Source of the DNA: a virus | Lineage: Duplodnaviria; Caudoviricetes | IMG/VR virus record: IMGVR_UViG_3300017747_002738 | Location: 1-43,450 of that record | Length of the DNA: 43,450 bases | Reading direction: 5' to 3' (one strand) | Shown: positions 2,960 through 32,059 of the stretch, piece by piece | Numbering within the stretch: position 1 is the stretch's first letter | How the letters are laid out: each line of letters opens with the position of its first letter | The notes under the pieces: generated by a model | Seen by the model: only the letters and a program-made list of their open reading frames with translations | The model's database searches: none | Told to the model about the DNA's origin: nothing | Translations under genes and position numbers: made by a program

Positions 2960-4278
2960 AACGTCCCTGGTTTAAATCTCGTGAATTCCTTGAAAAACTG
3001 AAAATGCACGTCACCCGTCCTGCCGTTTCGATTTTTGGCGATCAACAGATTTACAGGCTGAATCAGGTCGTCAACCGGCCCGCCTTCGGTTGGGCGCTCG
3101 TAAAGGAACCCGATGATGTCGGCGTCCTGCTCGATGGCGCCAGATTCGCGAAGGTCCGAGAGGCGAGGCTTGCGGTTCTTGTCTTTGTCCAGTTCGCGGT
3201 TTAGTTGCGCCAGCACAATGACGGGAATCTTTAGCTCTTTGGCCAGCGATTTGACCCCGTTGGAGATCTCGGCGACTTCGCGCTCGCGGTTGTTCTCTCG
3301 CTTGTTGGTGCCACGCATGAGCTGCAGGTAATCGATGACGATCAACTGCACCCCGAACCGGAGCGACATGCGGCGAGCCCGCGCGCGAAGCTTCATGATC
3401 GAAAGCCCGGCGGTGTCGTCAATGTGAATGCTCGATTTGATGATCTTGGCGGCGGCGGTCGTCATCCGTCGCATGTCTAGTTCAGTGATGGTTTGTTCGC
3501 GGAACTTGTCCTGATTGCATTCAGCCCTTGAGCAGAGCATGCGCTGCACAAGCTCCTCGGCGGTCATTTCGAGGCTGAACACACCTACGGGCAGGCCGCC
3601 GTCCACCGCAACGTTCTCGGCGATGTTCATGGCGAGCGAAGTCTTGCCCATGCCTGGTCGGGCGGCGATGACGACCATGTTCCCGGACTTTAATCCGGAC
3701 GTGATTCGGTCCATGTCGGCAAAGCCCGTGGTCAACCCATCGATCTGATTTCCCATCGCGTGCTGGCGCTCGAGGTTGGCAAGGGCGCCGTCAACCAAGC
3801 TCTTGATGTCCTTTTTCGACTCGCCGACAAGCCCGTTGGCGATCTCTGAAAGAGCCTGTTGAGACTCGTCGAGCAGTTCCAAGCCGTTTTTCGCTCCGTC
3901 ATACGCCTCCAGAATCGATTTCTGAGAGGCGTGGAGCACGTTTCTACGCGTCGCAAGGTCCAAAAGGGTGTCTAGGTAGCTCTCAAGGTTGTGCGCGCTT
4001 GTGGGGGCGTCTGGGAGCGAAGTCAGGTAGCTGATTCCGCCGATGGCCTCCAGTCGCCCTTTTTTCTTCAGCCGAGTTTGAATCGTGATGATGTCCACCG
4101 GCACCAACTCGTCCTGGAGCTCGCGGCACGTGTCGAAGATCTCTTGGTGCCGAAGATCGTAGAACATTCCGGCGGGCGCCGTCGCGATTTGCGGGATGCA
4201 CTCGCGAGGGTCGAGCAACACGCAGCCGAGGGTGGCTTGCTCGGCTCGGATGTCGTGGGGTGGGAGGCGGTCGGTCAT
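2956..4278 (-). CDS. dnaB: Replicative DNA helicase DnaB
   Basis: LPPHDIRAEQ N-terminus, AARPGMGKT Walker A, IVIDYLQLM, AQLNR, LSDLRESGAIEQDAD, IAKNRNG. Confidence 0.97.
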   Translation of the reverse strand: MTDRLPPHDIRAEQATLGCVLLDPRECIPQIATAPAGMFYDLRHQEIFDTCRELQDELVPVDIITIQTRLKKKGRLEAIGGISYLTSLPDAPTSAHNLESYLDTLLDLATRRNVLHASQKSILEAYDGAKNGLELLDESQQALSEIANGLVGESKKDIKSLVDGALANLERQHAMGNQIDGLTTGFADMDRITSGLKSGNMVVIAARPGMGKTSLAMNIAENVAVDGGLPVGVFSLEMTAEELVQRMLCSRAECNQDKFREQTITELDMRRMTTAAAKIIKSSIHIDDTAGLSIMKLRARARRMSLRFGVQLIVIDYLQLMRGTNKRENNREREVAEISNGVKSLAKELKIPVIVLAQLNRELDKDKNRKPRLSDLRESGAIEQDADIIGFLYERPTEGGPVDDLIQPVNLLIAKNRNGRTGDVHFQFFKEFTRFKPGTL

Positions 4279-5204
4279 ACTCCACACATCCCTTCGCATT
4301 CGTTGTTAAATTGGTTGTTAAACAAATCGTTTTGCCCCATCTCCAAATCCGTCCTTAGATCAACTTCTGCGAGTGGTCGCAACGAACGATGGAGGTATGG
4401 AATGCCTTTTATTTTTCCGGGGCTCGCGATGGAGCCATGGAGCGCTTGTAGTCGCGCCTCAAACTCTACAGCCTGCCGAAACTCATCCGGCTCCTCATCG
4501 CGAAGCTTTCGCCATTCGTGGTTTGATTTGAATGGGCAAAACTTGCAGGCAGATCGCGGCGGCTTTGGGAATCTGTTTCTCTCCATCCAAACAAGGCAAT
4601 CGTGACGTTTCATTCCAATATCAACAAGCGGCCATCGGTGAACGATAAAAGCGTCCCGGCTAGACTTCATTCTAGAAACCTCATCCAGTGAAATCCCAAT
4701 CCACTGAACGATTACAGGCTCCGGAATTAGCGGCGTAGAAGCATTAGAGAACGCGCCACCGAGGATTCTCGCTATACGCCTGCTCTCGTTTCGTTTGCGC
4801 CGCCACGCGGCAATCTCTGATTTCGCCAACCGCTTTACTTGTCGGATGATTGGAATAATTTTGAAATCTCGTGTGCAATATCTCCCAACGCGGCCCTCGG
4901 CATAACTAGCTCCCTTAACAAAGGCGGGGATGCAGTTTGAATAATACGGAGCCCCAGTCTTTTGATTGATTTTCTCTTTGACTGCGAATTCGGAAAGCTT
5001 CCCAACTGTCACTCGGTAAACCGGAAACGGCAGTTGGCTTTCCAGCCAGTCAAGCCACTTGTAAACACTCTTGGGCTCGTCCTGTGTGTCCGCAAAGATG
5101 GCGCAAGTCGGCATCGGCCCGATCTCGCCCTTTGCTGCCATAAGCGCCATTGTGCTGCTCTGGACGCCTGCGCCGAGGCTGATGATGTGGATTGGGTCGC
5201 TCAT
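4275..5204 (-). CDS. PAPS-reductase-like (PP-loop) phage protein
   Basis: ISLGAGVQSST, IFADTQDE, CTRDFKI, WIGISLDE, SACKFCPF, terminal CEGMCGV. Confidence 0.8.
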   Translation of the reverse strand: MSDPIHIISLGAGVQSSTMALMAAKGEIGPMPTCAIFADTQDEPKSVYKWLDWLESQLPFPVYRVTVGKLSEFAVKEKINQKTGAPYYSNCIPAFVKGASYAEGRVGRYCTRDFKIIPIIRQVKRLAKSEIAAWRRKRNESRRIARILGGAFSNASTPLIPEPVIVQWIGISLDEVSRMKSSRDAFIVHRWPLVDIGMKRHDCLVWMERNRFPKPPRSACKFCPFKSNHEWRKLRDEEPDEFRQAVEFEARLQALHGSIASPGKIKGIPYLHRSLRPLAEVDLRTDLEMGQNDLFNNQFNNECEGMCGV

Positions 5205-7515: not shown

Positions 7516-7844
7516 TTAAAAAACTCCTTCAGTTCCTCGATGGTTTCAAAAACCCGGACACCGATTTCAATGGCGTGTATAAACTCCTCGCGTGCTCCAA
7601 AAGATTTCTCCCAATCTTCGGTCAATAGAACCGCATCGCAGCGGCGCATGATTTCGAGATCGCCGTCCAGCCAATTCTCGTCCGGCAATTCGCCTTGAAA
7701 GAATCGTGTGTTCGCGTGCGGACAAATCGCCGCGTGCCCAAGCTTCCAGACTTCAAGCGCCAATTCCTCGGCGCGCCGGATGTTCTGCTCGATTGCCCAA
7801 TTTGTGGGGCCGCGATAAGGACCAGCGATGTAGATGACTTTCAT
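7512..7844 (-). CDS. DUF4406/DUF1937-like (nucleoside deoxyribosyltransferase fold) protein
   Basis: VIYIAGPY...ICPH...MRRCDAVLLTEDWEKSFGAREE. Confidence 0.8.
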   Translation of the reverse strand: MKVIYIAGPYRGPTNWAIEQNIRRAEELALEVWKLGHAAICPHANTRFFQGELPDENWLDGDLEIMRRCDAVLLTEDWEKSFGAREEFIHAIEIGVRVFETIEELKEFFK

Positions 7845-8821
7845 TGCTCGGGCTTTGGTTCGGTGTTCGAGAACAAGTCTTGTTCTTTGACTTGCTTTTC
7901 GAGCGCGTATCGAACGTTTTTAACAGCTTGCCGGAAGTAGCTCGGCTTAAGCTCCGCACCGATGGCCTTGCGGCCAAGCTTCACGGCCCCGTAAACCTCG
8001 GAACCGACGCCCATGAACGGCGTAAGAACAACGTCACCAGGATTGCTCCAAAGCGTAACGGCGCGCTCGATCACGTCGAGTTGAAGTGGATGAACGTGGC
8101 GCTCGTCTTGTTCGTCTCGCGCGGCTTCGAACGGCAGAACATTATCGATGCGGATGTCGTCCCAGAAGCACGAGGCGTATTGGCGCCATATCCAATGAGA
8201 GTAAATGTTCTTGATCTGGTTCCCGTCGTAACCCTTGTAGCCGAGCTTGTCGGCTGGCATGATGCGTTCCCCAGCGTATTCGAGGAGTCCGTTTGTGTGT
8301 GTGACGGGCTTTGGGTTCTCGCCTTTCTTGCGGAAGCAAATCAGGTAATCCGCCGCCGCAACGTTGGTCTTTGTGGCGTCCTCCACGATCTGCCGGTGAG
8401 CCAATGCCTTGCTCATAGTCCGGTTTCTGACGGCCAGCGGTTCCTTCCAAATGCAAATGCGCGGCAAGTATTCAAACCCGTGCTTTTGATGCAGCCGAAT
8501 GATGTCGCCCGGAAAGTCATTGTATCCGCAGATGTTCGCACCGTCCTTCGGGGTGTCTATGCAATGCACGGCGCTGATTCTTCCCGGCATTGTCAGCCGC
8601 GCAATTTCGGAAACGACAAACTCGTAGTGCGTAAAAAACTCGTCATAGTTGCGGTTGTTGCTCAGGTCGCGCTCGTCCGAACTGTAAACATACAGTCCGC
8701 AGAAGGGCGGAGAGTATATTGAAAGACCCACTGATTCGCTGGGCAACTGGCGCATGACTTCAATGCAATCTCCGTTATAGATTGCAAACTGGTCGTGAAT
8801 TTCTTGTGTTTCTTGGCTCAT
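7841..8821 (-). CDS. DNA methyltransferase, N4-C/N6-A beta class
   Basis: GDCIEVM, SPPF catalytic motif, HVHPLQLDVIER, VLTPFMGVGSE SAM-binding motif, IGAELKPSYF. Confidence 0.9.
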   Translation of the reverse strand: MSQETQEIHDQFAIYNGDCIEVMRQLPSESVGLSIYSPPFCGLYVYSSDERDLSNNRNYDEFFTHYEFVVSEIARLTMPGRISAVHCIDTPKDGANICGYNDFPGDIIRLHQKHGFEYLPRICIWKEPLAVRNRTMSKALAHRQIVEDATKTNVAAADYLICFRKKGENPKPVTHTNGLLEYAGERIMPADKLGYKGYDGNQIKNIYSHWIWRQYASCFWDDIRIDNVLPFEAARDEQDERHVHPLQLDVIERAVTLWSNPGDVVLTPFMGVGSEVYGAVKLGRKAIGAELKPSYFRQAVKNVRYALEKQVKEQDLFSNTEPKPEQ

Positions 8822-10331: not shown

Positions 10332-10486
10332 TTTGAAAACTCCTCAGCTGAGACGGCAGTTATGCGAGCGCCCACGTAAAACCCTTTAACGATTCGCAGG
10401 ATGGCGTTCGGTGCTGTCTTTGCGGCTTGCTCATAGCTCACCTTTTTGCCGTTTTTGGTCGTGATTGAAACAAGGTACTTTCTCAT
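10328..10486 (-). CDS. Small hypothetical protein
   Basis: 52 aa from MRKYLVSITTK; GGAGG upstream; overlapping neighbours. Confidence 0.55.
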   Translation of the reverse strand: MRKYLVSITTKNGKKVSYEQAAKTAPNAILRIVKGFYVGARITAVSAEEFSK

Positions 10487-10989
10487 TTCATCGCCTCCAG
10501 AATCGGCCCGATGTTCGCCTTTTGATAACCCGGAGGCTTCATGATTTTGCCCGTGGCATCCGTCACGCAAACATCCCCGGTCGGCAGCGGCTTGAAGTTG
10601 TAACCCTTACCGATGGCTTCGAACGCCTCTTCGTCGGTCCAGATGAATTTCGAGAAGTTTGAGCGCATAACTTCATCGAAGATGCGCTCCATGTCGATGC
10701 CGCAGGCAACGGCGGTGCCGAGAAGCACGACCATGCTGTCCGCGATGCCGTCGGCGATTTCGATAAGGTCTGGCGATTTGTGCGACTCGAAGTCTATGTG
10801 ATCGGCATCTATAAACGGCCTTAGTGAAATCACTTCTAACCCGAGCGCGTGAATCGTCTCCATCGCCTCTTCCATGATAAGTTTGGCCCGAAGTCTTCGC
10901 GCGGCCAAATCTGGCACGGTTGGCGTTGCTGGCGTCGGCAGTCCTGCTTTTTCTGTCCATTGCTGGACTTGAAACTGTTGGCTAGTCAT
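10483..10989 (-). CDS. MazG-like / PRA-PH nucleoside triphosphate pyrophosphohydrolase
   Basis: LRAKLIMEEAME, EIADGIAD, FDEVMRSNFSK, GKIMKPPGY. Confidence 0.85.
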   Translation of the reverse strand: MTSQQFQVQQWTEKAGLPTPATPTVPDLAARRLRAKLIMEEAMETIHALGLEVISLRPFIDADHIDFESHKSPDLIEIADGIADSMVVLLGTAVACGIDMERIFDEVMRSNFSKFIWTDEEAFEAIGKGYNFKPLPTGDVCVTDATGKIMKPPGYQKANIGPILEAMK

Positions 10990-21881: not shown

Positions 21882-22100
21882 TCAGTCATGGTTCGGCGGC
21901 TTGTGTTCGGCCAGCAGCTTGCGCAACTCCATCGACCGGCCCTCGGTATGATCCACCAGCACAAGGAACGCCGCAATAAATGCGCTCAGGTCGTGCTCGC
22001 CTTTGCACGGCACCCACTTCTCCGGGTCGAACTCCTTTCGGAGATAGTTCCCATCGCCGTTGCGGTATTCCGCGACGAGCCTGAGCCGTGTAGCAGCCAT
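21882..22100 (-). CDS. Hypothetical protein
   Basis: 72 aa ORF after the spanins. Confidence 0.55.
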   Translation of the reverse strand: MAATRLRLVAEYRNGDGNYLRKEFDPEKWVPCKGEHDLSAFIAAFLVLVDHTEGRSMELRKLLAEHKPPNHD

Positions 22101-22106
22101 TTTGGT

Positions 22107-22310
22107 TTATTGGTTAATCTTCCGACCAAGTTCTTCATTCAAATCGATCCAGAGCGCATCTGGAATGAACTGGCCGTCCACGGGAGCCGTGAACGGTTTG
22201 CCAGCCTTAACTCTTTGGATCGCCCGGTCGCTTGGAATCACGCGCGGCGCGACGCATCCGGAGAGTAGCAAGAGCATCGTTAACCCGAACAGAAGCACTG
22301 GCCGAATCAT
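22107..22310 (-). CDS. Outer-membrane spanin (Rz1-like lipoprotein)
   Basis: MIRPVLLFGLTMLLLLSG-C lipobox; overlaps the 3' part of the i-spanin gene in another frame. Confidence 0.7.
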   Translation of the reverse strand: MIRPVLLFGLTMLLLLSGCVAPRVIPSDRAIQRVKAGKPFTAPVDGQFIPDALWIDLNEELGRKINQ

Positions 22311-22452
22311 CGCTGTCGATTTCCTTTTCGACTTTGCGCATCCAATCGGCTTGCTTGTGCTCGGGTTCATCGTGCTTTGTTGCGCGCCGCTTCCATGCCC
22401 AAATGAGCGCAGGAAGCAACGCGGCGATAATGGTTAGGATTGTGGCGGTCAC
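22207..22452 (-). CDS. Inner-membrane spanin (Rz-like)
   Basis: N-terminal TM helix and helical soluble part; overlapped by the lipoprotein gene. Confidence 0.6.
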   Translation of the reverse strand: MTATILTIIAALLPALIWAWKRRATKHDEPEHKQADWMRKVEKEIDSDDSASASVRVNDALATLRMRRAARDSKRPGDPKS

Positions 22453-22646
22453 TTCACGCCAGCTTGTTCGCTCGAAACGTTGTTATCGCGCGCGAACAGC
22501 CCCATGACGCCAGCCGACACAATCGCAATCAGTGAGCCCCAATCTGGATTCGTCGCCGGGTTGTTATCCAGCAAAAGCGGGATGGCGTTGCCGATTGCGG
22601 TGACGATTGCGGTAATTCCAAGGACTGATGTTTTCCAGCTTTTCAT
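22449..22646 (-). CDS. Holin
   Basis: 65 aa, MKSWKTSVLG, two TM helices, GLFARD. Confidence 0.75.
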   Translation of the reverse strand: MKSWKTSVLGITAIVTAIGNAIPLLLDNNPATNPDWGSLIAIVSAGVMGLFARDNNVSSEQAGVK

Positions 22647-22650
22647 AAAT

Positions 22651-22890
22651 TTACTCCCGATTTAAAACGTGTTCCTTCAGAATCTTCATGTCGGTTCGAA
22701 GCTCCACTAGAATATCGTGGTCGCTCACGGTTTTTGCTTCAATCTTCTCAAGCTTGATCGCGGTCGCTTCAACTTGGGACTTGAGCAACTCCAGCGAGGT
22801 ATAGTAAAGCGCGATGGCGACGACGAGCGTAATAATCGCCTTTAGGTTCCCGCCGTTCTTTGTCAAAAATCGCGTTACGGACTCGCTCAT
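22651..22890 (-). CDS. Single-TM coiled-coil protein of the lysis cassette (holin/antiholin-like)
   Basis: AIITLVVAIALYY TM helix followed by a coiled coil. Confidence 0.6.
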   Translation of the reverse strand: MSESVTRFLTKNGGNLKAIITLVVAIALYYTSLELLKSQVEATAIKLEKIEAKTVSDHDILVELRTDMKILKEHVLNRE

Positions 22891-22897
22891 AAATCAT

Positions 22898-24541
22898 CTA
22901 TTGAATTCCGATCCCGCCTGAAAATATAATGCCGCCGCTCGCCTGAACCGTCGAAACATAGACGGCTTGAAACGTCTGCCCGCTTTCAACTGTTGGCGTG
23001 ATCGCAAGATCCGTGCTGTAGGTTTCGCCGTTGAGCTTCCATTGCTCAAATGGCAATCCGGAATACGTTGCTGGCGCTGTGAGCGTGATCGGCATTTGAT
23101 CGATGTAAAGATTCACTCCCGGAGTCGTCACGCTTAGGACGCTGTTCAGGTCTGCGGTCGTTGTGATGGTGGCCCCCATCGGAAGGCTTGTTATTGTCAC
23201 GTTGTGATCCGCGCCGACTCGCAGCGGATGCGGATATGATAGCGGTGTCCATCCCGGCCTCGGCGTGTTGTCGAAATAATCGCGGCCAGAGACGATGTAG
23301 TTCGTCGAATTTGGGATGTATGCGTAATCGCCAGTGTTGACGTAAGGCGTGGCATTCAGGAATGGCAATCCCAATACGCCGTCCATGTAATTCTCCCACG
23401 CGTAAAGCGGATTGTGCGTCTGCGTGACGTTCGTTGTCCCAAAGATCGTCGGCGGCCCCATGCCCATCTGGTCCATTGCTGGATAGCCGGTTGCATCCTC
23501 GCCTCCTACGTAGTATTCGCCCGGCGCGGCTGGGCCGAACGGATTGCAGCAAGGAATAAGAAAACCGGAACTATTGGTTGTTGTGTAGTAAATGTTCGTG
23601 CCTGAGTTCCGGTAATTGTCGATGCGGATGAAGTTCTGCGGAGTGTCAGCCACATGCACCACCGTGTTGCTTGCGAACAAGCCAGAACCGCCACGGAACG
23701 AAAACGGAAACACGTTGTTGTTGTTCGTCCAGTTGTTGCCGTAAAGTTCATACCAGACTGTCCCGCGATTCGCGCCCGAGGAGTCGGTTCCATGAGCCCC
23801 GAAGCTTAGGTTTGTTCCAGTGAAGAAACGCGCCGCCCATCTCGCTCCCGCATAACTATCCACGGTTCCGTTCCCGCTACCTGTGTTTGGATACGTCGCA
23901 TAAATATCCTCCATAACGACCATGTTTGTCGTTCCTGGAGACAATGGGATCGTATCCCAAGATGGGAACATATTCGTCGCGTTTGCCGCGTTCGTGCTTG
24001 TGGTGTTAGCGTTTCCAAGTCCGTTGATTTGAAACATCTGGCCATTAACCGTGGAATCGATGCGGCAGTTGTCTGCTAAACTCATTGACCAACCGTTGAA
24101 GGTAATTCCGTCACGCAACAGCAAGTTCGTGATGATGATGTGATCCACGCGCGCAATGTTCGTGAACAAGTAATGGCTTAACCCAAAGTTACCGATTTGG
24201 ATGATCGATGAAGTTCCTCCTGTGGTTCCACCATCTATCACGCGAAAGTTGCTCAAGCGAACAAGATTCGTCGGCGTCCCGCTGAATTGAATCAAGGGCT
24301 CGTTGGCCGTCGTGGCGCGAGTGATGATTGTGTGGTAGCCAGCGCCGACAAGCGTGATCGCCTTGTTCGTGACCTTGAGGGAATTGGTCCAAGTCGCGGC
24401 CCCCACAGGAATAATCACCATGTCACCCGTCGAAGCCAAGTCGATAGCAGCCTTCACGTCGTCGCGCTCAACAGACGCCGCCGTGTAAACTGCTCCGAAG
24501 CAGTTCAGGCTTGCGAGAAAGATGACGAGTAAAAGTCTCAT
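22898..24541 (-). CDS. Secreted beta-helix-like protein with signal peptide
   Basis: MRLLLVIFLASLNCFG signal; DDVKAAIDLASTGDMVIIPVG beta-helix cap; WTPLSYPHPL; InlB-B-repeat-like C-terminal domain; ATGA coupling supports the start. Confidence 0.75.
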   Translation of the reverse strand: MRLLLVIFLASLNCFGAVYTAASVERDDVKAAIDLASTGDMVIIPVGAATWTNSLKVTNKAITLVGAGYHTIITRATTANEPLIQFSGTPTNLVRLSNFRVIDGGTTGGTSSIIQIGNFGLSHYLFTNIARVDHIIITNLLLRDGITFNGWSMSLADNCRIDSTVNGQMFQINGLGNANTTSTNAANATNMFPSWDTIPLSPGTTNMVVMEDIYATYPNTGSGNGTVDSYAGARWAARFFTGTNLSFGAHGTDSSGANRGTVWYELYGNNWTNNNNVFPFSFRGGSGLFASNTVVHVADTPQNFIRIDNYRNSGTNIYYTTTNSSGFLIPCCNPFGPAAPGEYYVGGEDATGYPAMDQMGMGPPTIFGTTNVTQTHNPLYAWENYMDGVLGLPFLNATPYVNTGDYAYIPNSTNYIVSGRDYFDNTPRPGWTPLSYPHPLRVGADHNVTITSLPMGATITTTADLNSVLSVTTPGVNLYIDQMPITLTAPATYSGLPFEQWKLNGETYSTDLAITPTVESGQTFQAVYVSTVQASGGIIFSGGIGIQ

Positions 24542-25404
24542 CGCACGGTGGCGTAAATGTGCTTCTGTGTCCAAGCAACCGTTGAGGCGGTGTTCGGAGT
24601 CACCGTGACCCCGAATGTAAGCGCTGCGGACGTGTCGATTGCAGCAGCCCCTCCAGCCACAATCTTTGCCATCAATGGAGTGAAAAATATCTGCGTCGTC
24701 AGCACTTGCGCGCTACCGATATTGAACCCGCCGCTCACCCATTGAGCCGAGGCGCTGTCCATGTTGCTTACTTCAAACTCAAGCTGGTAGGCGTATTTGA
24801 CATCTGCTGAGGCTTGTGTTGTGATGTTGTAAGTTCCGCCGTCAAACACAACGCTTCCCCCAAGGTAAAACTTTGGCCTGATTGTTATATTCCCCCCTGA
24901 ATGGTTCTCAAGGTATCCGACAGATCGGACGTAAAGCACTTTATTTGTTCCAAGAATCCCCGCCGTCAGAAGCGTCGTGTTGGTGTAAATGCTTGACTCA
25001 GATGTGGTATTTGTTATTAATCCGCTGGTTCCGCTGTATGCGCTCGGCCCTGAAGCTCCTGTCACGGTCGCATTGAACACAACGTTCGAGTTGAACACAA
25101 CTGGAATGCTGTTTGTCAGCTTAACGTCATTCGCGGCGTTCGTGATCGTGCCACCGACGGCCATTGTCACAAGCGCTGGCGAAACCCCGGAAAGCGTGAA
25201 GCTTGCGGCGGTGACTGCTCCGGTTGCGTTCAGGCTGTTTGCGCTAACCTGCCCTTGCACAAGCATATTTGTGCCTGAGATTATGGCCGCGTTTGTCGCA
25301 AGTAAACGGTTGGCAACACCGTTATATGCGGCGATTGCTCCAGTGGTTGCAGCCGTCGCGGTGTGCGCAAAAAGCAGCGTGATAAAAATGCAGATCGTTT
25401 TCAT
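24538..25404 (-). CDS. Fibre-like protein with signal peptide
   Basis: MKTICIFITLLFAHTATA signal; T/A/N/G-rich beta-type sequence; TAATG coupling. Confidence 0.75.
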   Translation of the reverse strand: MKTICIFITLLFAHTATAATTGAIAAYNGVANRLLATNAAIISGTNMLVQGQVSANSLNATGAVTAASFTLSGVSPALVTMAVGGTITNAANDVKLTNSIPVVFNSNVVFNATVTGASGPSAYSGTSGLITNTTSESSIYTNTTLLTAGILGTNKVLYVRSVGYLENHSGGNITIRPKFYLGGSVVFDGGTYNITTQASADVKYAYQLEFEVSNMDSASAQWVSGGFNIGSAQVLTTQIFFTPLMAKIVAGGAAAIDTSAALTFGVTVTPNTASTVAWTQKHIYATVR

Positions 25405-25553
25405 TATTCAGGATTCTCCCAAGGTTCGCCGGTTTCTGGATTGACCCATGGCTCTCCGGTCTCTGGATTGATCCACGCATCAGCGGGAACCGAATCTCCT
25501 GGAATCTGTCCAAAAGGGATTCCCATTCCAAGTCCTAAGCCAAGTCCAAACAT
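25404..25553 (-). CDS. 49 aa peptide with GLGLGLG N-terminus and WxNPE(TGEP) repeats (not in ORF track)
   Basis: My translation: MFGLGLGLGMGIPFGQIPGDSVPADAWINPETGEPWVNPETGEPWENPE; GGAG upstream; TAATG coupling to the next gene. Confidence 0.75.
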   Translation of the reverse strand: MFGLGLGLGMGIPFGQIPGDSVPADAWINPETGEPWVNPETGEPWENPE

Positions 25554-25564
25554 ATAGACTCCAT

Positions 25565-27439
25565 TTAGTTCAGGTTCACCCAAGCGCCCCCGGCGCGCCC
25601 TTGAAAGTTTGTGGTCGAGGTATTGTAAATCAGCATTCCGTTTGCGGGTGACGCAATAGCATCGCGCTGCGTTGTGGTAACGCGCGGAATGGTCAAAGCC
25701 TCGTGCGTCAAAACCGTGTGCTGCGTGCTGCCGTTGTAAAAGCCGAACCCGCCCACGCCGGAAACCATCGCGAAATTGTTCGGACTGACAATCGACAGAT
25801 TGTTTGTCGTCGCATCGACAATCGTCCTGTCCGTGTTATTGGTCACGAGTTGGAAGCTTCCCCAAGTTCCGGTTGAACTGACGTGCATCTGCGCATTCTG
25901 AGAGCCGACAATCGCGGCTTGGTTTGTTTCAGCCGTGGCCGAGGCGGTCAAATAGAAAAGGTTTGTGGTCGCAAACAGAGAAAGGTTTGTTGCGCTCGCG
26001 TTTGTGTTTGCTCCGATCAGGATTTCAGCAGCGTAGTTTGTGGTTGTGGCGGTCTTCCACGTCTTTGTTTCGCCGTTTATGACGAGCGTATCTCCGTCAG
26101 TCGGATTGTTCGTCACCAGCGCATAAACCCGCCGCGTCTCGGCTTGAAACGTTAGGCTTAGGTTTGTGCTCTGGTTGGCAATTACTCCGGTGCCGAGTCG
26201 CATGCTCCTTGTGACGTTCAGGTCGCTGCCTGAAATCGTGACGTATGTCGGAGAATAAAGAGTCATTGATGCGTCCGAATTCCCATCAATGTAAATGTTC
26301 CCCGTGTTCGAGAGCGTCGAACCCATCGATAAGTAAATCCCGCTGTCAACCTTCGGCGCGTAAGTGCGGAACGATGCGGTATTGATGTTGTTAATCGGGT
26401 AACTGACACCAGTTTGCCGGATGTTCCCCGAGCCTTGGAACCATCCTTTAAGCGAAGCCCACACCCAACCATTAGTGGCGCTGTTGTCCACGTCCACGAC
26501 GACGCCTCCACCCGAGGCGTCCAGCCACATGCCGGAGCTTTGCAGCAAAGGAGAGTAGCCGAATGCCGAGGCGGTCTTTGTCATCTTAACCATTCGGCCG
26601 CTCGTGCCGTCAACGTAAGTGCCGATGAACATCAGTTCGCTCGCGTCAATCTCGATGGCGTAAACGTCCGTGCCGGACGAGCGCCCGTTAATCTCGCCGC
26701 CGAAGAATCGATTAGCTGTGACGTAAGCATCCTCGTCGTTCGCCCAAAGCGAATAGATAGCTCGGGAACCCTCCTCGCTGGATTGCTCGATCCTGGTTCC
26801 GTAAAACTCGTTGAGCGTCGCCGGATAGTTCGTTCCATTCCCAAGCATGATGTTGGTCTTGTAACCAAAGAGAACAAGGTTTTGGTAGTATCCGCCCCAC
26901 CCGCTTTGAATCCAAAGCGCGCGAGATCCGTTGTTCGGAGCATACATGGTTGCGTTCTGGATGCTGAATCCCTTCACGGTTCGCGAGTCGTCACCAACCC
27001 GGAAGGCGGTAACGTTCGTCGCATGCGTGAGCCAAGCAAGGTTGGTTGCAATGGCAGTCGAATAAACCATGCCTGCGCCTGGGCCTGAAAGCGTCACGTT
27101 GTCGTTTGTGATTGTCACGGTCGAATTGATAACCGTTCGAGCCGGAATGAACACGCGCCCGCCGCCGTTGGTCAGCGAATTAACAGCAAGCTGGATGTAG
27201 CTCGCGTCGTCAGTCTCGCCGTCGCACGCGGCGCCGATGGATCGAATGTCGATCTGAATCCCGCGCAGGACGTTCGTCACCGACCAAAAGTTCGTGTTGA
27301 TCTTCTGCGCCATTGAGCGCGGAGTGTCGCCCGTGCCGTCGTTGGCCGCAGTCCCGAAATTGATGTTCGTGATCGCGTATCGCTGCGCCGAGGCGTTCAC
27401 GGCCAGCAACAGAACGAAAATTGAAAAGATTGCTCTCAT
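25565..27439 (-). CDS. Tailspike/fibre with pectate-lyase-like beta-helix and signal peptide
   Basis: MRAIFSIFVLLLAVNASA signal; INFGTAANDGTGDTPRSMAQKINTNF (T4 gp9/gp10-like); IRSIGAACDGETDDASYIQLAV beta-helix start; C-terminal PRVTTTQRDAIASPANGMLIYN. Confidence 0.8.
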   Translation of the reverse strand: MRAIFSIFVLLLAVNASAQRYAITNINFGTAANDGTGDTPRSMAQKINTNFWSVTNVLRGIQIDIRSIGAACDGETDDASYIQLAVNSLTNGGGRVFIPARTVINSTVTITNDNVTLSGPGAGMVYSTAIATNLAWLTHATNVTAFRVGDDSRTVKGFSIQNATMYAPNNGSRALWIQSGWGGYYQNLVLFGYKTNIMLGNGTNYPATLNEFYGTRIEQSSEEGSRAIYSLWANDEDAYVTANRFFGGEINGRSSGTDVYAIEIDASELMFIGTYVDGTSGRMVKMTKTASAFGYSPLLQSSGMWLDASGGGVVVDVDNSATNGWVWASLKGWFQGSGNIRQTGVSYPINNINTASFRTYAPKVDSGIYLSMGSTLSNTGNIYIDGNSDASMTLYSPTYVTISGSDLNVTRSMRLGTGVIANQSTNLSLTFQAETRRVYALVTNNPTDGDTLVINGETKTWKTATTTNYAAEILIGANTNASATNLSLFATTNLFYLTASATAETNQAAIVGSQNAQMHVSSTGTWGSFQLVTNNTDRTIVDATTNNLSIVSPNNFAMVSGVGGFGFYNGSTQHTVLTHEALTIPRVTTTQRDAIASPANGMLIYNTSTTNFQGRAGGAWVNLN

Positions 27440-27440
27440 G

Positions 27441-28649
27441 TTAGTCGCGAAAACTTGTGACAATCCAACGTGAGGCGGTCGCATCATAAACAAGCGTCAC
27501 GGCGCCCACTCCTGACGTTGCGATGTCGGATCCAGTCAAGGTATAGATTCGATTCGCGGGCGTAGGGTCCGTCCCGGAGTCGTTGGCAATCGTCATGTTT
27601 TGCGCAATCGAATTGTAAATCGTGATCTCGCGCCCGTCCTCGCCACCGGCGATTCCGCAAATCGCGAAGGCTGCTGTTGGTCCGGCTGTCAGCTTGGTGT
27701 TCTTCGCGGTCACAACGATCGCCGAGTTGTTGCCGTTCGCGAGTGAGCTATTAACGATGAACGGAAGGATTGACGTGCCAGTGTTCTTAATCGAGTCATC
27801 GATTCGAAGCTGTCCTTCCTGAAGGTTTAAGTAATCGAGCGTTGTCCCGGTTCGGTCCGCGACAAGCACAGTGTGAAATGAAGATGCCGCGTCATCGTAA
27901 ACACCCAACGAGAAGAACCCGCCAGCCGCCGAAATGTAGTAGTTCTTCTCGTCCGCCGCCGCGTCCGTGTCTTTAAAGTTCATCGTCGGCGCGGTGTTTG
28001 TAATGTCGAATGCGCCGTAAACGTAAAGGTTCGTTGTCCATATGTTTGTAAAACCGCCCGTGACGTTTGTCAGAGTCCCGCTGCTCATCGTCGCGGAAAC
28101 GAGCGTCTTGTTGCTCAACGTCTGCGCGGTCGTCAGGTTCGCGTGATGCGCAAGCGCCGTGGCGGCTGCGGGAATGCTGTTTGTGCTGTGCGTCCCGATG
28201 TCGCGCACGAGCTCGCTAATGATGTTCGTCGCCTTGGACTGAACCGGAACCGAGGTTGCCGGAACCATGACGACAACCATGTTCGTGGTCGTGTTCGTGC
28301 TCAGCGTGAGCGTCGCCCAAGTCCCCGAGGCGCTGGCGCTGATTGTCTGGTCAACAATTCCGCGAAGCGTAACGATGTTCGAGCTTGAACGGTTCAGGCT
28401 TAAGGTTGTGAATCCGTAGCTTGCGAACTGGTTGAACATGTTCGTTGTGCAAGCGCCGATATTCGCTCCGATTAGTATCTCGTTTGCAGCCGTGGCCACG
28501 CTCGCAACGTTTGTTCGGACAACTGAATTGACGGTAATAGTGTCGCCTGCGCTAGGCGTGTTTGTGACGGTGATGGTCAAAGTGACGATCGAACCCGCGT
28601 GCGCGCAGGCAACACAAAGCAAAATTGGAATGAGCGTTAAAAACTTCAT
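27441..28649 (-). CDS. Tail-fibre-like protein with signal peptide
   Basis: MKFLTLIPILLCVACAHA signal; AQTLSNKTL fibre motif; C-terminal GIAGGEDGREITIYN...VTLVYDATASRW; TAATG coupling. Confidence 0.8.
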   Translation of the reverse strand: MKFLTLIPILLCVACAHAGSIVTLTITVTNTPSAGDTITVNSVVRTNVASVATAANEILIGANIGACTTNMFNQFASYGFTTLSLNRSSSNIVTLRGIVDQTISASASGTWATLTLSTNTTTNMVVVMVPATSVPVQSKATNIISELVRDIGTHSTNSIPAAATALAHHANLTTAQTLSNKTLVSATMSSGTLTNVTGGFTNIWTTNLYVYGAFDITNTAPTMNFKDTDAAADEKNYYISAAGGFFSLGVYDDAASSFHTVLVADRTGTTLDYLNLQEGQLRIDDSIKNTGTSILPFIVNSSLANGNNSAIVVTAKNTKLTAGPTAAFAICGIAGGEDGREITIYNSIAQNMTIANDSGTDPTPANRIYTLTGSDIATSGVGAVTLVYDATASRWIVTSFRD

Positions 28650-29269
28650 TAGAGCAAATCGCATTCGAGCGTTCCGTTGTTCGATAGGTAAACGTATCCG
28701 CGCTTCGTTCCATCCGGAGAAGTCAGGATGTATCCAACCCCGGCCCCGTTGTCCCGCAGCAAGGCGCGTGCATTCATCTCCGGCGTTGTCACGTATGTCG
28801 TGTCCGGTATTGCGGTCGGGCTGCCTGAATAGTTCCGCTGGTTCTGAATCGTGCCCGTGGTCCGGACGTTTCTGCTCCCGTAAGCTCCCGTGAAACGAAA
28901 TTCAATGATGACTGATGCTGTGGTCGCCGTTGATACGTAGCTCGCCATCGCCACGGTGTTGCAATCCACATTGCCGGTCAGCGTGCCCGCCGACGTGTCC
29001 GCCGTGAATGAGCTGCCCGTGGCCAGAACCGTTGCGCCGTCGCTCGAATAAATCGAAGCGACCAGGCTCATGCCGGACACGTCGCAAGCGGCCAGAGGCG
29101 TGGAAAGCGTGGCGGCGGTGTTCACCACCACGGGAAAGACCTGCAAATAGAGATTGTTCCGTGAAAAGAACTGTCCGAACGGCTGATTTGTCGTTTGCCG
29201 CGATTGCTTTCCCTCAAGGAAGTAACCGGAGGACAAATTCGCGAAAACTGGAATGATCTCGACCGCCAC
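28649..29269 (-). CDS. Tail/baseplate adaptor protein
   Basis: 206 aa beta-rich; C-terminal ILTSPDGTK...LSNNGTL motif seen in fibre proteins; no signal peptide. Confidence 0.65.
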   Translation of the reverse strand: MAVEIIPVFANLSSGYFLEGKQSRQTTNQPFGQFFSRNNLYLQVFPVVVNTAATLSTPLAACDVSGMSLVASIYSSDGATVLATGSSFTADTSAGTLTGNVDCNTVAMASYVSTATTASVIIEFRFTGAYGSRNVRTTGTIQNQRNYSGSPTAIPDTTYVTTPEMNARALLRDNGAGVGYILTSPDGTKRGYVYLSNNGTLECDLL

Positions 29270-29289
29270 ACCTTAAGGGCGGGAGTCAA
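29270..29289 (-). promoter_or_regulatory. Candidate late promoter motif, copy 1
   Basis: TTGACT-CCCGCCCT-TAAGGT directly followed by the GTG start. Confidence 0.7.
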
Positions 29290-29293
29290 TCCC

Positions 29294-30049
29294 TTAGGGG
29301 CGGTAGGCAACCCCGGAGACGGTGAGTGATGTCGGCGGGAAGATCGTCGCGCCGTAGGCCATCAGCGGAGCCGCAATGGAGACGTTCAGCATTATCATGT
29401 GAGTGATCGTTTGGTCGGCTGCAACCAGCAACCCGCCAGCGACATCGTCTGCCGTGGTGTCAACCTGCGGATATCGAAGCGGCACGACCGGCTCTTCAAA
29501 GCGCGCTGTTGCATCCGGGCTTGCGATGAAAATGCCGCCGAGTCGGGCGTCCTCAACAAGCGGCTGCGTCTCTTCTGGAACGTCTCCGTTTCCGTAAACC
29601 GATTGGCCCGTGCCGACAAGTATCGTCCAGCCGCCCGGAATTGGCGTGCTGAACTTGAGAATCGAATATGCCATTTGCGGAACAGCGTCCAAATCAAGCT
29701 CTGGCCCGAGCGTTGCCCAAATTCCTTCCTGTTCCACTGCGGTTGGCGCATACAGTCCCCCAGCGCCGGTGGCTGAAATGTCGGGAGGATACCATGCGGC
29801 GATGGTCGTGCCGTTCCTGAACCCTGTCGGTGCGACCCATTGGGCGATGAATGGAATCCGCCCCAGGCTCGCGCGACGCGACCTTTTCCCACCTTTTGGC
29901 CGATGCATTACCCCGCCAGGAGTGTGAATTGAAAAAGAGCCGCTATCAAAAAGCATGCGGCGTTCGCCATACAACCCGCCTTGGACCTTCTTTGCCCAAT
30001 CAGCAAACGGGCTGCCCCCGGACGGCTGCGGTGGCTTATATTCGTTCAT
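29294..30049 (-). CDS. Tail tip-region protein
   Basis: 251 aa ORF after the tape measure; N-terminal 50 aa duplicated in the upstream mini-gene. Confidence 0.65.
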   Translation of the reverse strand: MNEYKPPQPSGGSPFADWAKKVQGGLYGERRMLFDSGSFSIHTPGGVMHRPKGGKRSRRASLGRIPFIAQWVAPTGFRNGTTIAAWYPPDISATGAGGLYAPTAVEQEGIWATLGPELDLDAVPQMAYSILKFSTPIPGGWTILVGTGQSVYGNGDVPEETQPLVEDARLGGIFIASPDATARFEEPVVPLRYPQVDTTADDVAGGLLVAADQTITHMIMLNVSIAAPLMAYGATIFPPTSLTVSGVAYRP

Positions 30050-30053
30050 CGAT

Positions 30054-30206
30054 TTATCGGCTGTGGATTGTCCCGCGAGGGGTCACGATTATTTTCGCGC
30101 CGGTCACGAAAAGTATGCGTCGGCTTTTGGACGCGGAAACTTGCTTCTTTGCCCAATCAGCGAAAGGCGAGGAACCGGACGGAATCATTGGCTTCGGTTC
30201 GTTCAT
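30054..30206 (-). CDS. 50 aa paralog of the N-terminus of the next gene
   Basis: MNEPKPMIPSGSSPFADWAKK versus MNEYKPPQPSGGSPFADWAKK; ATGA coupling. Confidence 0.65.
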   Translation of the reverse strand: MNEPKPMIPSGSSPFADWAKKQVSASKSRRILFVTGAKIIVTPRGTIHSR

Positions 30207-30946
30207 GAGTAAAGCAGGTCGGACCAGGCGTAACACCAGTATTCAAAGTTCAGCGCAATCTTGTTATCTGCCACCGTGTTGAGCGTAGGAGCCTGTTTAA
30301 GCCATCCGAGCGTGTAATCCGCAGGAATAGTCCCGAAGCTTGCTTGCGCTGCTGCTGCGGCAAGCTGAATGGCCGTGGTGTATGCGCGTGGAGTTGAAAT
30401 CTCCGCGAGCATTTCGGCAGTCGTGTAAATCTTGTTCACGTCCGTGAATGCAACTGGAATCTCGTTTGCTCGCCGTCCAATGATTTGCGTCACCCGGAAA
30501 ACGAATTGTGAATCGATATACGTGTCCTGGCCGGTAATGGCCATGTCGTAAATCTTGAGCGTGTTTCCCGTGAACGATGGCGCAGCGTCTCCCGGGCTCC
30601 TGTCCAGCGCATCCCGAATTTGCAAGATAACAGCCTGTCCAAGAGCGCGAGCCACCGGATGCTCAAAAATGCTCTTGCTGCTCGTGTTTGCCAGAAGCTC
30701 GTATTGAACATCAAGTATTGCGTTCGGATCTTCGTTCTCGCTGTATCCGGTTTGCGTGATTGAAAGCTTTGCGATGGGCGGTGACGTGTAGTCAACCTCG
30801 TAACGCACGCCGACAAGCTGACGCTCCAATTCCTCGATGGCTTCCTTTGTGCCCTCGTAATACTGCGTGAATGACGGTCCGCGAGACGGGTCGTAATCCC
30901 GCGAGAAGCCCGCCCGGACCAAAGCTGATACTCCGTTGACAATCAT
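30203..30946 (-). CDS. Tail tip/hub protein
   Basis: 247 aa directly after the tape measure; position-based call. Confidence 0.6.
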   Translation of the reverse strand: MIVNGVSALVRAGFSRDYDPSRGPSFTQYYEGTKEAIEELERQLVGVRYEVDYTSPPIAKLSITQTGYSENEDPNAILDVQYELLANTSSKSIFEHPVARALGQAVILQIRDALDRSPGDAAPSFTGNTLKIYDMAITGQDTYIDSQFVFRVTQIIGRRANEIPVAFTDVNKIYTTAEMLAEISTPRAYTTAIQLAAAAAQASFGTIPADYTLGWLKQAPTLNTVADNKIALNFEYWCYAWSDLLYS

Positions 30947-32059
30947 TTAGAAAATTGTTTCCTTAGGTTTTGCTGCCGAGAATCCGCCGCCTTTTTTGAT
31001 GGCGTCCAAAGCGTCCGCAGCCTTGCGCGTGTTCTTCTCGATGTTGTTCAGCGGGCGATCTGCCGACATGACAAGCCCGCCCAGCTTCTGCCAGTTGTTC
31101 ACCTCGGGTTTGTCGGCATTGCGAAGCTTCTTTTCCTTTTCGGGTGTGGCGTCGAACATTCTCGCGTTGACACCCTTAAATCTTGTGTCCTCCTCCCATG
31201 GTCTTTTGCTGTTACTTACACCGCCCAGTCCTTTAATTGCATCTGAGAGCGTTCCCATCATTGCCTCTTGAAGCTCTTCAAATGGAGCCGTTTTGAAAAG
31301 AGACCCCTTAACGGTTTCCTTGCCGCTAAAAAGCCCTTTCAGTAAAAGCTTTGCAGACTCAAAGCCGCCAACTAAAACGTTTGCAAACGTCGTTTTTGAT
31401 TGGGATTTAAGATCGTTCAGTTTGTCTCCAACCTTATCGAGCCGATCAATGACACTCTTGTCGATTGCAAGCCCAAGCCTGTCGAAGTTGTCGATCATCC
31501 CGCCGATGCCTTCCTTCATCGCTGGAATAAGCGAGTCGGCGCTCTTTCCCATCAACGCAAGCATGCTGGCCATGTATTTCGTTGAATCACCAGCGCCTTT
31601 GATGACATCTGAAATCTGCCTGAACAGTTGAAGGTTTGGCGCGCTGCTTTTCAGCATGTCCAAATCGATTCCGTATTCTGCGAAATTGGAGCGTGCTTTT
31701 GAATCTCCTCCGAGCGCCGCGCTTCTCGCAACCGCGATCTTTTTCAGCGCCGATGCCATGTCCTCGATAGATGCGCCGGTCTGTTCTGCCGCGTAACCAA
31801 GTGCCTGAACCTCCTCCGTAGTGATGCTCATGCGCGCGGCCTGGTCGTGAACCTTGCCGCCGTAATCCACAATCTTCTTAATCTCTGCCCCCATCTTTGC
31901 CGCAGCCGCAATGAGTGCCGCCGGTCCAAACGCGGCAGCGAAAGCCATCTTAATTCCGGCGGCGGTGGATTTCGCCTGGCTATCCACCTGCTTCATGCCG
32001 AGCTTGAACCCGCTCGCATTCAGCCCGAGGAACGCCTGTAGATTGAGAAAGTTTGCCAT
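30947..32059 (-). CDS. Tape measure protein (short)
   Basis: LGLNASGFKLGM N-terminus, EEVQALGYAAEQTG, LMGKSADSLIP; Ala/Gly/Lys-rich helical sequence. Confidence 0.8.
   Translation of the reverse strand: MANFLNLQAFLGLNASGFKLGMKQVDSQAKSTAAGIKMAFAAAFGPAALIAAAAKMGAEIKKIVDYGGKVHDQAARMSITTEEVQALGYAAEQTGASIEDMASALKKIAVARSAALGGDSKARSNFAEYGIDLDMLKSSAPNLQLFRQISDVIKGAGDSTKYMASMLALMGKSADSLIPAMKEGIGGMIDNFDRLGLAIDKSVIDRLDKVGDKLNDLKSQSKTTFANVLVGGFESAKLLLKGLFSGKETVKGSLFKTAPFEELQEAMMGTLSDAIKGLGGVSNSKRPWEEDTRFKGVNARMFDATPEKEKKLRNADKPEVNNWQKLGGLVMSADRPLNNIEKNTRKAADALDAIKKGGGFSAAKPKETIF

Follow-up and report, generated by a model that had tools for sequence, protein, structure and literature searches.

Tailed phages are taught to complete their assembly in the cytoplasm, where siphophages with BppU/RBP baseplates assemble both anchor and fibre, and T4 or P22 particles made without fibres can take up finished ones in extracts. 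In filamentous phages the virion receptor-binding protein, pIII, has a membrane anchor and joins the particle as it is extruded without lysis. A signal peptide is encoded by gIII of these phages (PMC9402515). The lateral fibre of T5 is anchored by p132, which has the N-terminal fold of BppU (PMC10038345), Bdellovibrio MAT fibres have a beta-rich domain, conserved and approximately 130 residues long, after the signal peptide (PMC10769870), and a 2026 preprint on huge-phage envelope proteins describes sortase substrates and outer-membrane proteins, its main text lacking the string “tail fib” (10.64898/2026.10.24.761521). No description of tailed-phage fibres exported via the general secretory (Sec) pathway was found in the literature searched, which was covered as listings and abstract beginnings and included few subscription papers. 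Here we describe four fibre-region genes, gA, gB, gC and gD, of the viral record IMGVR_UViG_3300017747_002738 (Caudoviricetes; the window analyzed is the entire record, 43,450 nt). Their products all start with Sec-type leaders, and they probably reach the periplasm by this route, may undergo modification in it, and probably dock on phage particles at lysis.

Leaders of the Fibre-Region Proteins

The four N-termini pointed out in an earlier, sequence-only reading of this DNA are present on the minus strand, and each has a leader of 16–18 residues with the features of signal peptidase I (SPase I) substrates, that is, a basic n-region, a hydrophobic h-region and small residues at –3 and –1 (Table 1). 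Throughout this work, leaders were called by a heuristic based on charge, hydrophobicity and cleavage site, not by SignalP. It flags nine of 69 minus-strand open reading frames (ORFs), namely gA–gD, two holin-like ORFs, an o-spanin-like lipoprotein and a pair of small ORFs beyond the structural region, and thus no head or tail-core gene, as the sequence-only reading had stated. That reading also relied on stop/start coupling at the junctions TAATG, TAACATG, TAATG and ATGA; these are as described and coupled starts do exist, but the partner of gC is an overlooked leader-less ORF of 49 residues, not gB. The next in-frame ATG is at codon 43 in gB, 47 in gC and 41 in gD, and gA has no further one in its first 70 codons, so that no ATG start lies directly past the hydrophobic stretch.

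No lipobox, transmembrane segment in the mature chain or PEP-CTERM tail was found in gA–gD, and PEP-CTERM is absent from all 69 leader-bearing phage proteins, though the host uses it; no recurrence of the Gly-rich C-terminal tail of gD as a sorting motif was found. Searches of Pfam and PHROG with gA–gD gave no match. The mature chains contain two (gA), one (gB), none (gC) and three (gD) Cys residues, and gA homologues, 0.22% Cys; because of this low content, disulfide folding is an unlikely main reason for export. The 49-residue ORF, also without a Pfam or PHROG match, sits inside the exported block between gB and gC and might encode a linker peptide; small leader-bearing proteins of relatives (L014:11557-11949, L027, L050) terminate in acidic repeats resembling those of this ORF.

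Conservation of the Leader and of the Locus

The gA family keeps the signal peptide, a point that the sequence-only reading had proposed to check: 79 of 86 gA homologues pass the heuristic, so the leaders are not due to chance. In three of the seven failing it, the leader sits behind a start that was called too far upstream; of the remaining four, two are fragments, one retains a truncated leader and a single one is genuinely without it. The leaders are divergent in sequence and end at a fixed distance before the conserved mature start.

Locus searches yielded 52 rows. Once duplicates had been removed, together with two viral and 13 genome loci matching only the C-terminal domain, 27 loci were analyzed; having been retrieved through gA, they show that the gA family keeps its leader, not that all related phages do. 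The gA gene is present in 26 of them (22 leaders by the heuristic, and four N-termini that look hydrophobic by eye), and the adaptor, also in 26, with no leader in any of these. Leader calls in other core genes are rare (tape measure, 1/18; tail chaperone, 1/20; tail-tip, 0/16; tail-completion, 0/14). In 22 of the 25 loci holding both genes, gA starts at –4 to +7 nt from the adaptor stop. Further leader-bearing genes rich in Thr-Asn usually follow gA in relatives, with variable content, and the later slots include leader-bearing alpha-galactosidase, GDSL-esterase and LamG proteins.

One dropped locus (L013) belongs to an unrelated phage, where the gA C-terminal domain is found in a leader-less protein of 164 residues. 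Viral contigs scanned with gA or the adaptor as single proteins gave no matches, alignment queries being needed, and capsid-based relatives, which are too distant or end before the fibre slot, provide no unbiased test. Homology between the N-domain of the relatives’ second fibre and a leader-less 1412-residue protein (L107) is not claimed, as the profile gave no match at E 1e-3.

The Leader-Less Adaptor

The gene immediately upstream of gA encodes a leader-less adaptor of 206 residues, predicted from its AlphaFold model (pLDDT 87) to carry the BppU N-terminal Ig-like fold of the fibre-anchor type. The model matches baseplates of TP901-1, 80alpha and NF5, a T5 tail-tip chain and myophage neck proteins with Z 7.5–8.8 (4v96_AA: Z 8.6, rmsd 3.0, 115 aligned; 3uh8: Z 7.6), and Foldseek matches to baseplate and tail-tip proteins have E 3e-4 to 8e-4. 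The matched 139-residue T5 chain is presumably p132. The adaptor has no Pfam match, and its Atlas score of 0.79 for PF10651 is taken as a lead only.

In the likely host order the adaptor was found in seven of 401 genomes. Of five loci in this order, four have it at the start of leader-less proteins of 446–828 residues, as expected for a fibre root, and the contig end truncates the fifth; hence a conventional fused form coexists with the split exported form. A complex prediction for three adaptors and three gA N-terminal regions (21–154) scored 0.02 without controls and is evidence neither way.

Domain Structure of gA–gD

The N-terminal domain of gA resembles phage sheath and nozzle domains (Z 8.8–10.5; for the best, rmsd 2.5, 90 aligned), its middle sheet resembles the Bd2133 fibre (Z 6.8), and the C-terminal domain, a tailspike C-terminus (Z 8.0). 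Homologues of gA have a fibre shaft and trimer repeats, and in many of them YadA-head repeats are inserted; among 87 matches these repeats occur in 31 and BppL_N in four. In the monomer model gA ends as a soluble beta-sandwich, not a C-terminal beta-barrel anchor, and there is no Pfam match to the YadA anchor.

Residues 21–55 of gB match 304 cultured-phage records at E<=1, individually weak, the best listed being 5e-5. In two gp9-like connectors inspected, Met1 aligns with residue 3 of the predicted mature gB, so the gB leader is prefixed to what elsewhere is the very N-terminus of a virion protein. The body of gB, for which no full-length homologue was found, is likely a beta-helix judging by its sequence, and contains a copy of the gA N-domain (E 2e-6 to 6e-5). 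As the gB motif is also present on leader-bearing proteins adjoining head genes at two loci (L025, L112), gB may instead be appended to the head or neck.

Out of 95 gC homologues, 16 have a leader and 79 do not; the latter we take, from their N-termini, to be phage minor tail proteins, an assignment unconfirmed by PHROGs. Sequence searches of PDB with gB and gC gave empty results or noise. The ESM Atlas model of gD matches beta-helix clusters (TM 0.50–0.65), the best ones being bacterial, and a single homologous phage locus was found (E 2e-16); gD is a candidate glycan-binding or depolymerase subunit. No virion-attachment element was recognised in gC or gD.

Thr-Asn Signature of the Leader-Bearing Proteins

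The dipeptide Thr-Asn (TN) occurs 52 times in gA–gD against 21 expected from shuffles (2.5-fold, z 8), while the reverse dipeptide Asn-Thr is not enriched (19/22). The 16 core virion proteins have TN at 8/13 (0.6), including two equally Thr-rich ones at 2/4. For comparison we sampled a host-order genome, G303 (36 windows, L063–L098, 720 kb of 5.9 Mb, crude ORF calls). Its 66 signal-bearing proteins have 277/147 = 1.89, compared to 180/157 = 1.15 in 259 charged leader-less proteins; the ratio of 1.42 in all leader-less proteins refers to a set that includes extracellular-looking proteins with missed or truncated leaders. In 37 signal-bearing proteins of other phyla it is 149/193 = 0.77, and gC homologues have 1.66 with a leader and 1.03 without. 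This shared excess indicates that gA–gD evolve like exported proteins of the host. TN sites favour hydrophobic neighbours and avoid Pro after Asn, in a set partly chosen on TN content.

Judging by these frequencies, TN may be a motif of periplasmic modification by the host, most simply glycosylation. The TN excess in exported proteins of G303 is in itself a possible novel modification motif; literature searches surfaced no paper on protein glycosylation in Verrucomicrobia.

Genomic Context and Host

The record is linear, with completeness estimated at 74%. Its genes for terminase, portal, S49 protease, major capsid protein and a short tape measure of 370 residues, all on the minus strand, mark it as a tailed phage of the lambda-like type. 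The late operon is unbroken from the small terminase through the spanin-like genes, and the fibre slot is therefore visible in full. Coordinates are given in Table 1. The early-region genes listed there are ordinary among environmental siphophages. In the lysis region of several relatives there is an alpha/beta-hydrolase-like gene (regions L008:15704-16504, L016:16631-17236, L112:13792-14424).

Table 1. Features of the window and candidate decoration genes of related loci.
Feature	Coordinates	Strand	Description
gA, 402 aa	27441-28649	minus	Leader 1-18 (28596-28649), beta-sandwich 19-122, helix 137-154, shaft, C-terminal beta domain 294-402; model pLDDT 89
gB, 624 aa	25565-27439	minus	Leader 1-18 (27386-27439), gp9/gp10-like motif 21-55, likely beta-helix, internal gA N-domain copy 427-530
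gC, 288 aa	24538-25404	minus	Leader 1-18 (25351-25404), short shaft, C-terminal domain ~120-285 also present in many leader-less proteins
gD, 547 aa	22898-24541	minus	Leader 1-16 (24494-24541), right-handed beta-helix to ~445, small C-terminal domain
Leader-less ORF, 49 aa	25404-25553	minus	Gly-Leu repeat, three W-x-NPE(TGEP) repeats; GGAG upstream of ATG
Adaptor, 206 aa, leader-less	28649..29269	minus	N-terminal Ig-like domain ~1-147; predicted cytoplasmic docking site
Leader-less tail core upstream	29294..32059	minus	No leaders; synteny in relatives
Protein without assigned role, 251 aa	29294-30049	minus	Leader-less
Conserved tail-tip protein, 247 aa	30203-30946	minus	Synteny in relatives
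Tape measure, 370 aa	30947-32059	minus	TMP PHROG, E 1e-14
Lysis cassette	22107..22890	minus	Two holin-like, Rz-like, overlapping lipoprotein
Holin-like ORFs	22651-22890, 22449-22646	minus	Hydrophobic segments in sequence; putative holins
Rz-like	22207-22452	minus	phrog_7686, E 0.0018
Overlapping lipoprotein (o-spanin-like)	22107-22310	minus	Lipobox in sequence
PAPS-reductase-like gene, DNA methyltransferase, MazG-like pyrophosphohydrolase	4275-5204, 7841-8821, 10483-10989		Early region
Candidate exported capsid decoration genes	L005:1090-1536, L016:1544-2158, L032:944-1558, L034:1699-2262, L037:1923-2375, L050:875-1339		In relatives

Full-length gA with a syntenic tail is found in a metagenome-assembled genome (MAG) labelled Verrucomicrobiia (L037), as well as in two MAGs labelled Terriglobia and Pyrinomonadaceae, which may reflect mis-binning or a wider range. 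In the order containing the genome of L037, gA homologues are present in five of 401 genomes. The record thus appears to represent an uncultured tailed phage with a likely Verrucomicrobia host. In G303 we observe an integrated element of approximately 9 kb (G303:C1 ~2,314,500-2,323,600, loci L060/L061; genes labelled by eye).

Six relatives encode leader-bearing, TN-rich proteins of 148–204 residues at the head-decoration position, upstream of the neck genes; they fall into two weakly related groups and are candidates for exported capsid decoration. The closest capsid relative (L112:4000-15604, 62% identity) has portal, scaffold, decoration and capsid genes, directly after which come proteins that begin in a leader-like manner (gp9/10-like start, LamG, beta-helix) and no neck or tail genes; it might be an element that lacks a tail or resembles a satellite. 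Glycosyltransferase family 2 genes immediately behind the capsid gene in relatives (L003:120-2456, L113:9668-11488, L119, L120) suggest separate phage-encoded capsid glycosylation.

Proposed Mechanism and Alternatives

We propose that the head, the tail tube and the predicted BppU-like anchor, having no export signals, would be made in the cytoplasm, while the leaders would direct gA–gD through Sec, with SPase I cutting after residues 18, 18, 18 and 16, respectively. Trimers of gA–gD would fold in the periplasm, where the host might modify the TN sites, glycosylation being simplest, and access to this modification would be the benefit of export. At lysis, holins and spanins would merge the compartments, and the fibres would dock on the particles built in the cytoplasm. 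Of the docking links, binding of gA to the adaptor is the best founded; gB–gD could attach through gA, through their own N-terminal motifs or to the head.

The sequence-only reading had the phage exporting its fibre proteins and adding them to particles during or after lysis. Export is strongly supported by conservation and by the host-secretome signature, the leaders being real and family-wide. A virion role is probable, and addition at or after lysis, which is the best-supported reading, we infer from the fibre position of the gA–gD block after a baseplate anchor in the late operon, from the coupling of gA to the BppU-like anchor and from the retained attachment motifs. The case for a virion role appears solid in gA and gB, less so in gC, and is weakest in gD, because look-alikes of the latter are cellular beta-helix proteins. 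A much broader generalization, still tentative and rather doubtful, is that a whole lineage of Verrucomicrobia phages divides virion building between the cytoplasm (capsid, tail and fibre anchor) and the periplasm (tail fibres, spikes and head decoration), all outward appendages being periplasmic and TN-glycosylated by an undescribed host system, and infectious particles coated with host glycans being completed at lysis.

Several observations weigh against the periplasmic route. The TN excess could be a compositional habit of the host. Canonical N-glycosylation of the PglB/STT3 type was rejected, as N-x-S/T is not enriched in gA–gD (41/34 against shuffles) and STT3 (PF02516) was found in none of five likely host genomes, four of them maybe incomplete and the true host not established; no enzyme for a modification step was thus found. 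Z-scores of the adaptor are middling, generic Ig folds reaching 7.7. The T5 collar is absent when its fibre is missing (PMC10038345); if the same holds here, the adaptor too could join only at lysis. The gB–gD slots vary freely among relatives, gD begins directly with the beta-helix and has bacterial proteins as its nearest look-alikes, and gA has no match among 50,697 phage records and no cultured family member. In the integrated element of G303, a gA homologue with a leader is accompanied by an integrase-like gene, small genes and part of a tape measure, and there is no adaptor; the element is perhaps a remnant or a satellite. Finally, the 251-residue protein could be a conventional receptor-binding tip, in which case the four leader-bearing proteins might not be essential.

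The same leaders would serve proteins that are exported and never bound to the virion, such as soluble lectins, depolymerases or decoys remodelling the envelope or capsule for progeny escape or masking receptors against superinfection. This would fit the likeness of gD to secreted cellular beta-helix proteins, the leader-bearing enzymes and LamG proteins of relatives, and the lysis cassette, as no endolysin was recognised in window positions 21882–22890 or in 21 scanned ORFs of relatives, the record being approximately 74% complete. It may be true of gD alone, but for the block as a whole we consider it unlikely, given that gA is tightly coupled to a BppU-like adaptor otherwise without an evident client, its homologues have a fibre shaft and trimer repeats, and gB keeps the N-terminus of a virion connector. 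Surface display on the host, the alternative offered by the sequence-only reading, is disfavoured by the lack of a lipobox, transmembrane helix or PEP-CTERM tail in the four proteins. In particular, host-surface adhesins expressed from a prophage (lysogenic conversion), comparable to Bdellovibrio MAT fibres, are suggested by the YadA-head repeats, the Bd2133-like middle domain of gA and the presence of relatives in bacterial genomes; yet, in addition to these missing anchors and the missing beta-barrel, the genes are coupled members of the late operon, the coding strand within 22898–31000 shows nothing resembling a promoter, and no integrase is present in the record (linear, 74% complete), making this very improbable.

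Least probable of all, the leaders would be uncleaved membrane tethers or unused extensions, with fibres folding on the cytoplasmic side and assembling conventionally. They are indeed short, with a single basic residue and cleavage that is predicted only, but across divergent leaders the small –3/–1 residues stay at a constant distance before the conserved mature start, no ATG directly follows the leader, and the mature chains show the TN signature of exported proteins, absent from the core virion proteins.

Comparison With Known Systems

If fibres do take the Sec route before docking at lysis, phage morphogenesis acquires a periplasmic stage, virions could bear host periplasmic modifications, the mechanics of lysis would bear on infectivity, and such fibres are mistaken for secreted morons in genome annotation. 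The TN signature points to a testable lineage-specific modification of exported Verrucomicrobia proteins and serves as a host marker for uncultured phages.

Of the described systems, the locus is most similar to TP901-1 ORF48 and to the T5 p132 collar with pb1, where an Ig-like anchor gene directly precedes the fibre gene (PMC10038345); the adaptor shares this fold. Homologues of gA also show weak BppL_N shaft similarity, as in BppU/RBP baseplates. Unlike siphophages with such baseplates, whose anchor and fibre both assemble in the cytoplasm, here the anchor alone has no leader. Residues 21–55 of gB match the N-terminal motif of T4 gp9/gp10-like connectors (PF07880) in cultured cyanophages and coliphages, and a leader-bearing protein of a relative matches PF07880 at E 4e-4, below the cut-off. 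In contrast to these connectors, gB shares the motif only, with a leader in front and an unrelated body behind, and itself has no Pfam match. Like pIII, gA–gD would be virion receptor-binding proteins made with a cleavable signal peptide, but their phage is tailed and lytic and encodes a portal, a terminase and a tape measure. Bdellovibrio MAT fibres (PMC10769870) and Pantoea WceF (PMC7949094) likewise have phage-fibre- or tailspike-like folds behind a signal peptide; however, both are chromosomal bacterial proteins, not products of a phage late operon, and WceF uses the twin-arginine (Tat) pathway. This window adds a leader-less BppU-like anchor coupled to a fibre with a predicted export signal, with fused leader-less counterparts in the host order and a controlled TN signature.

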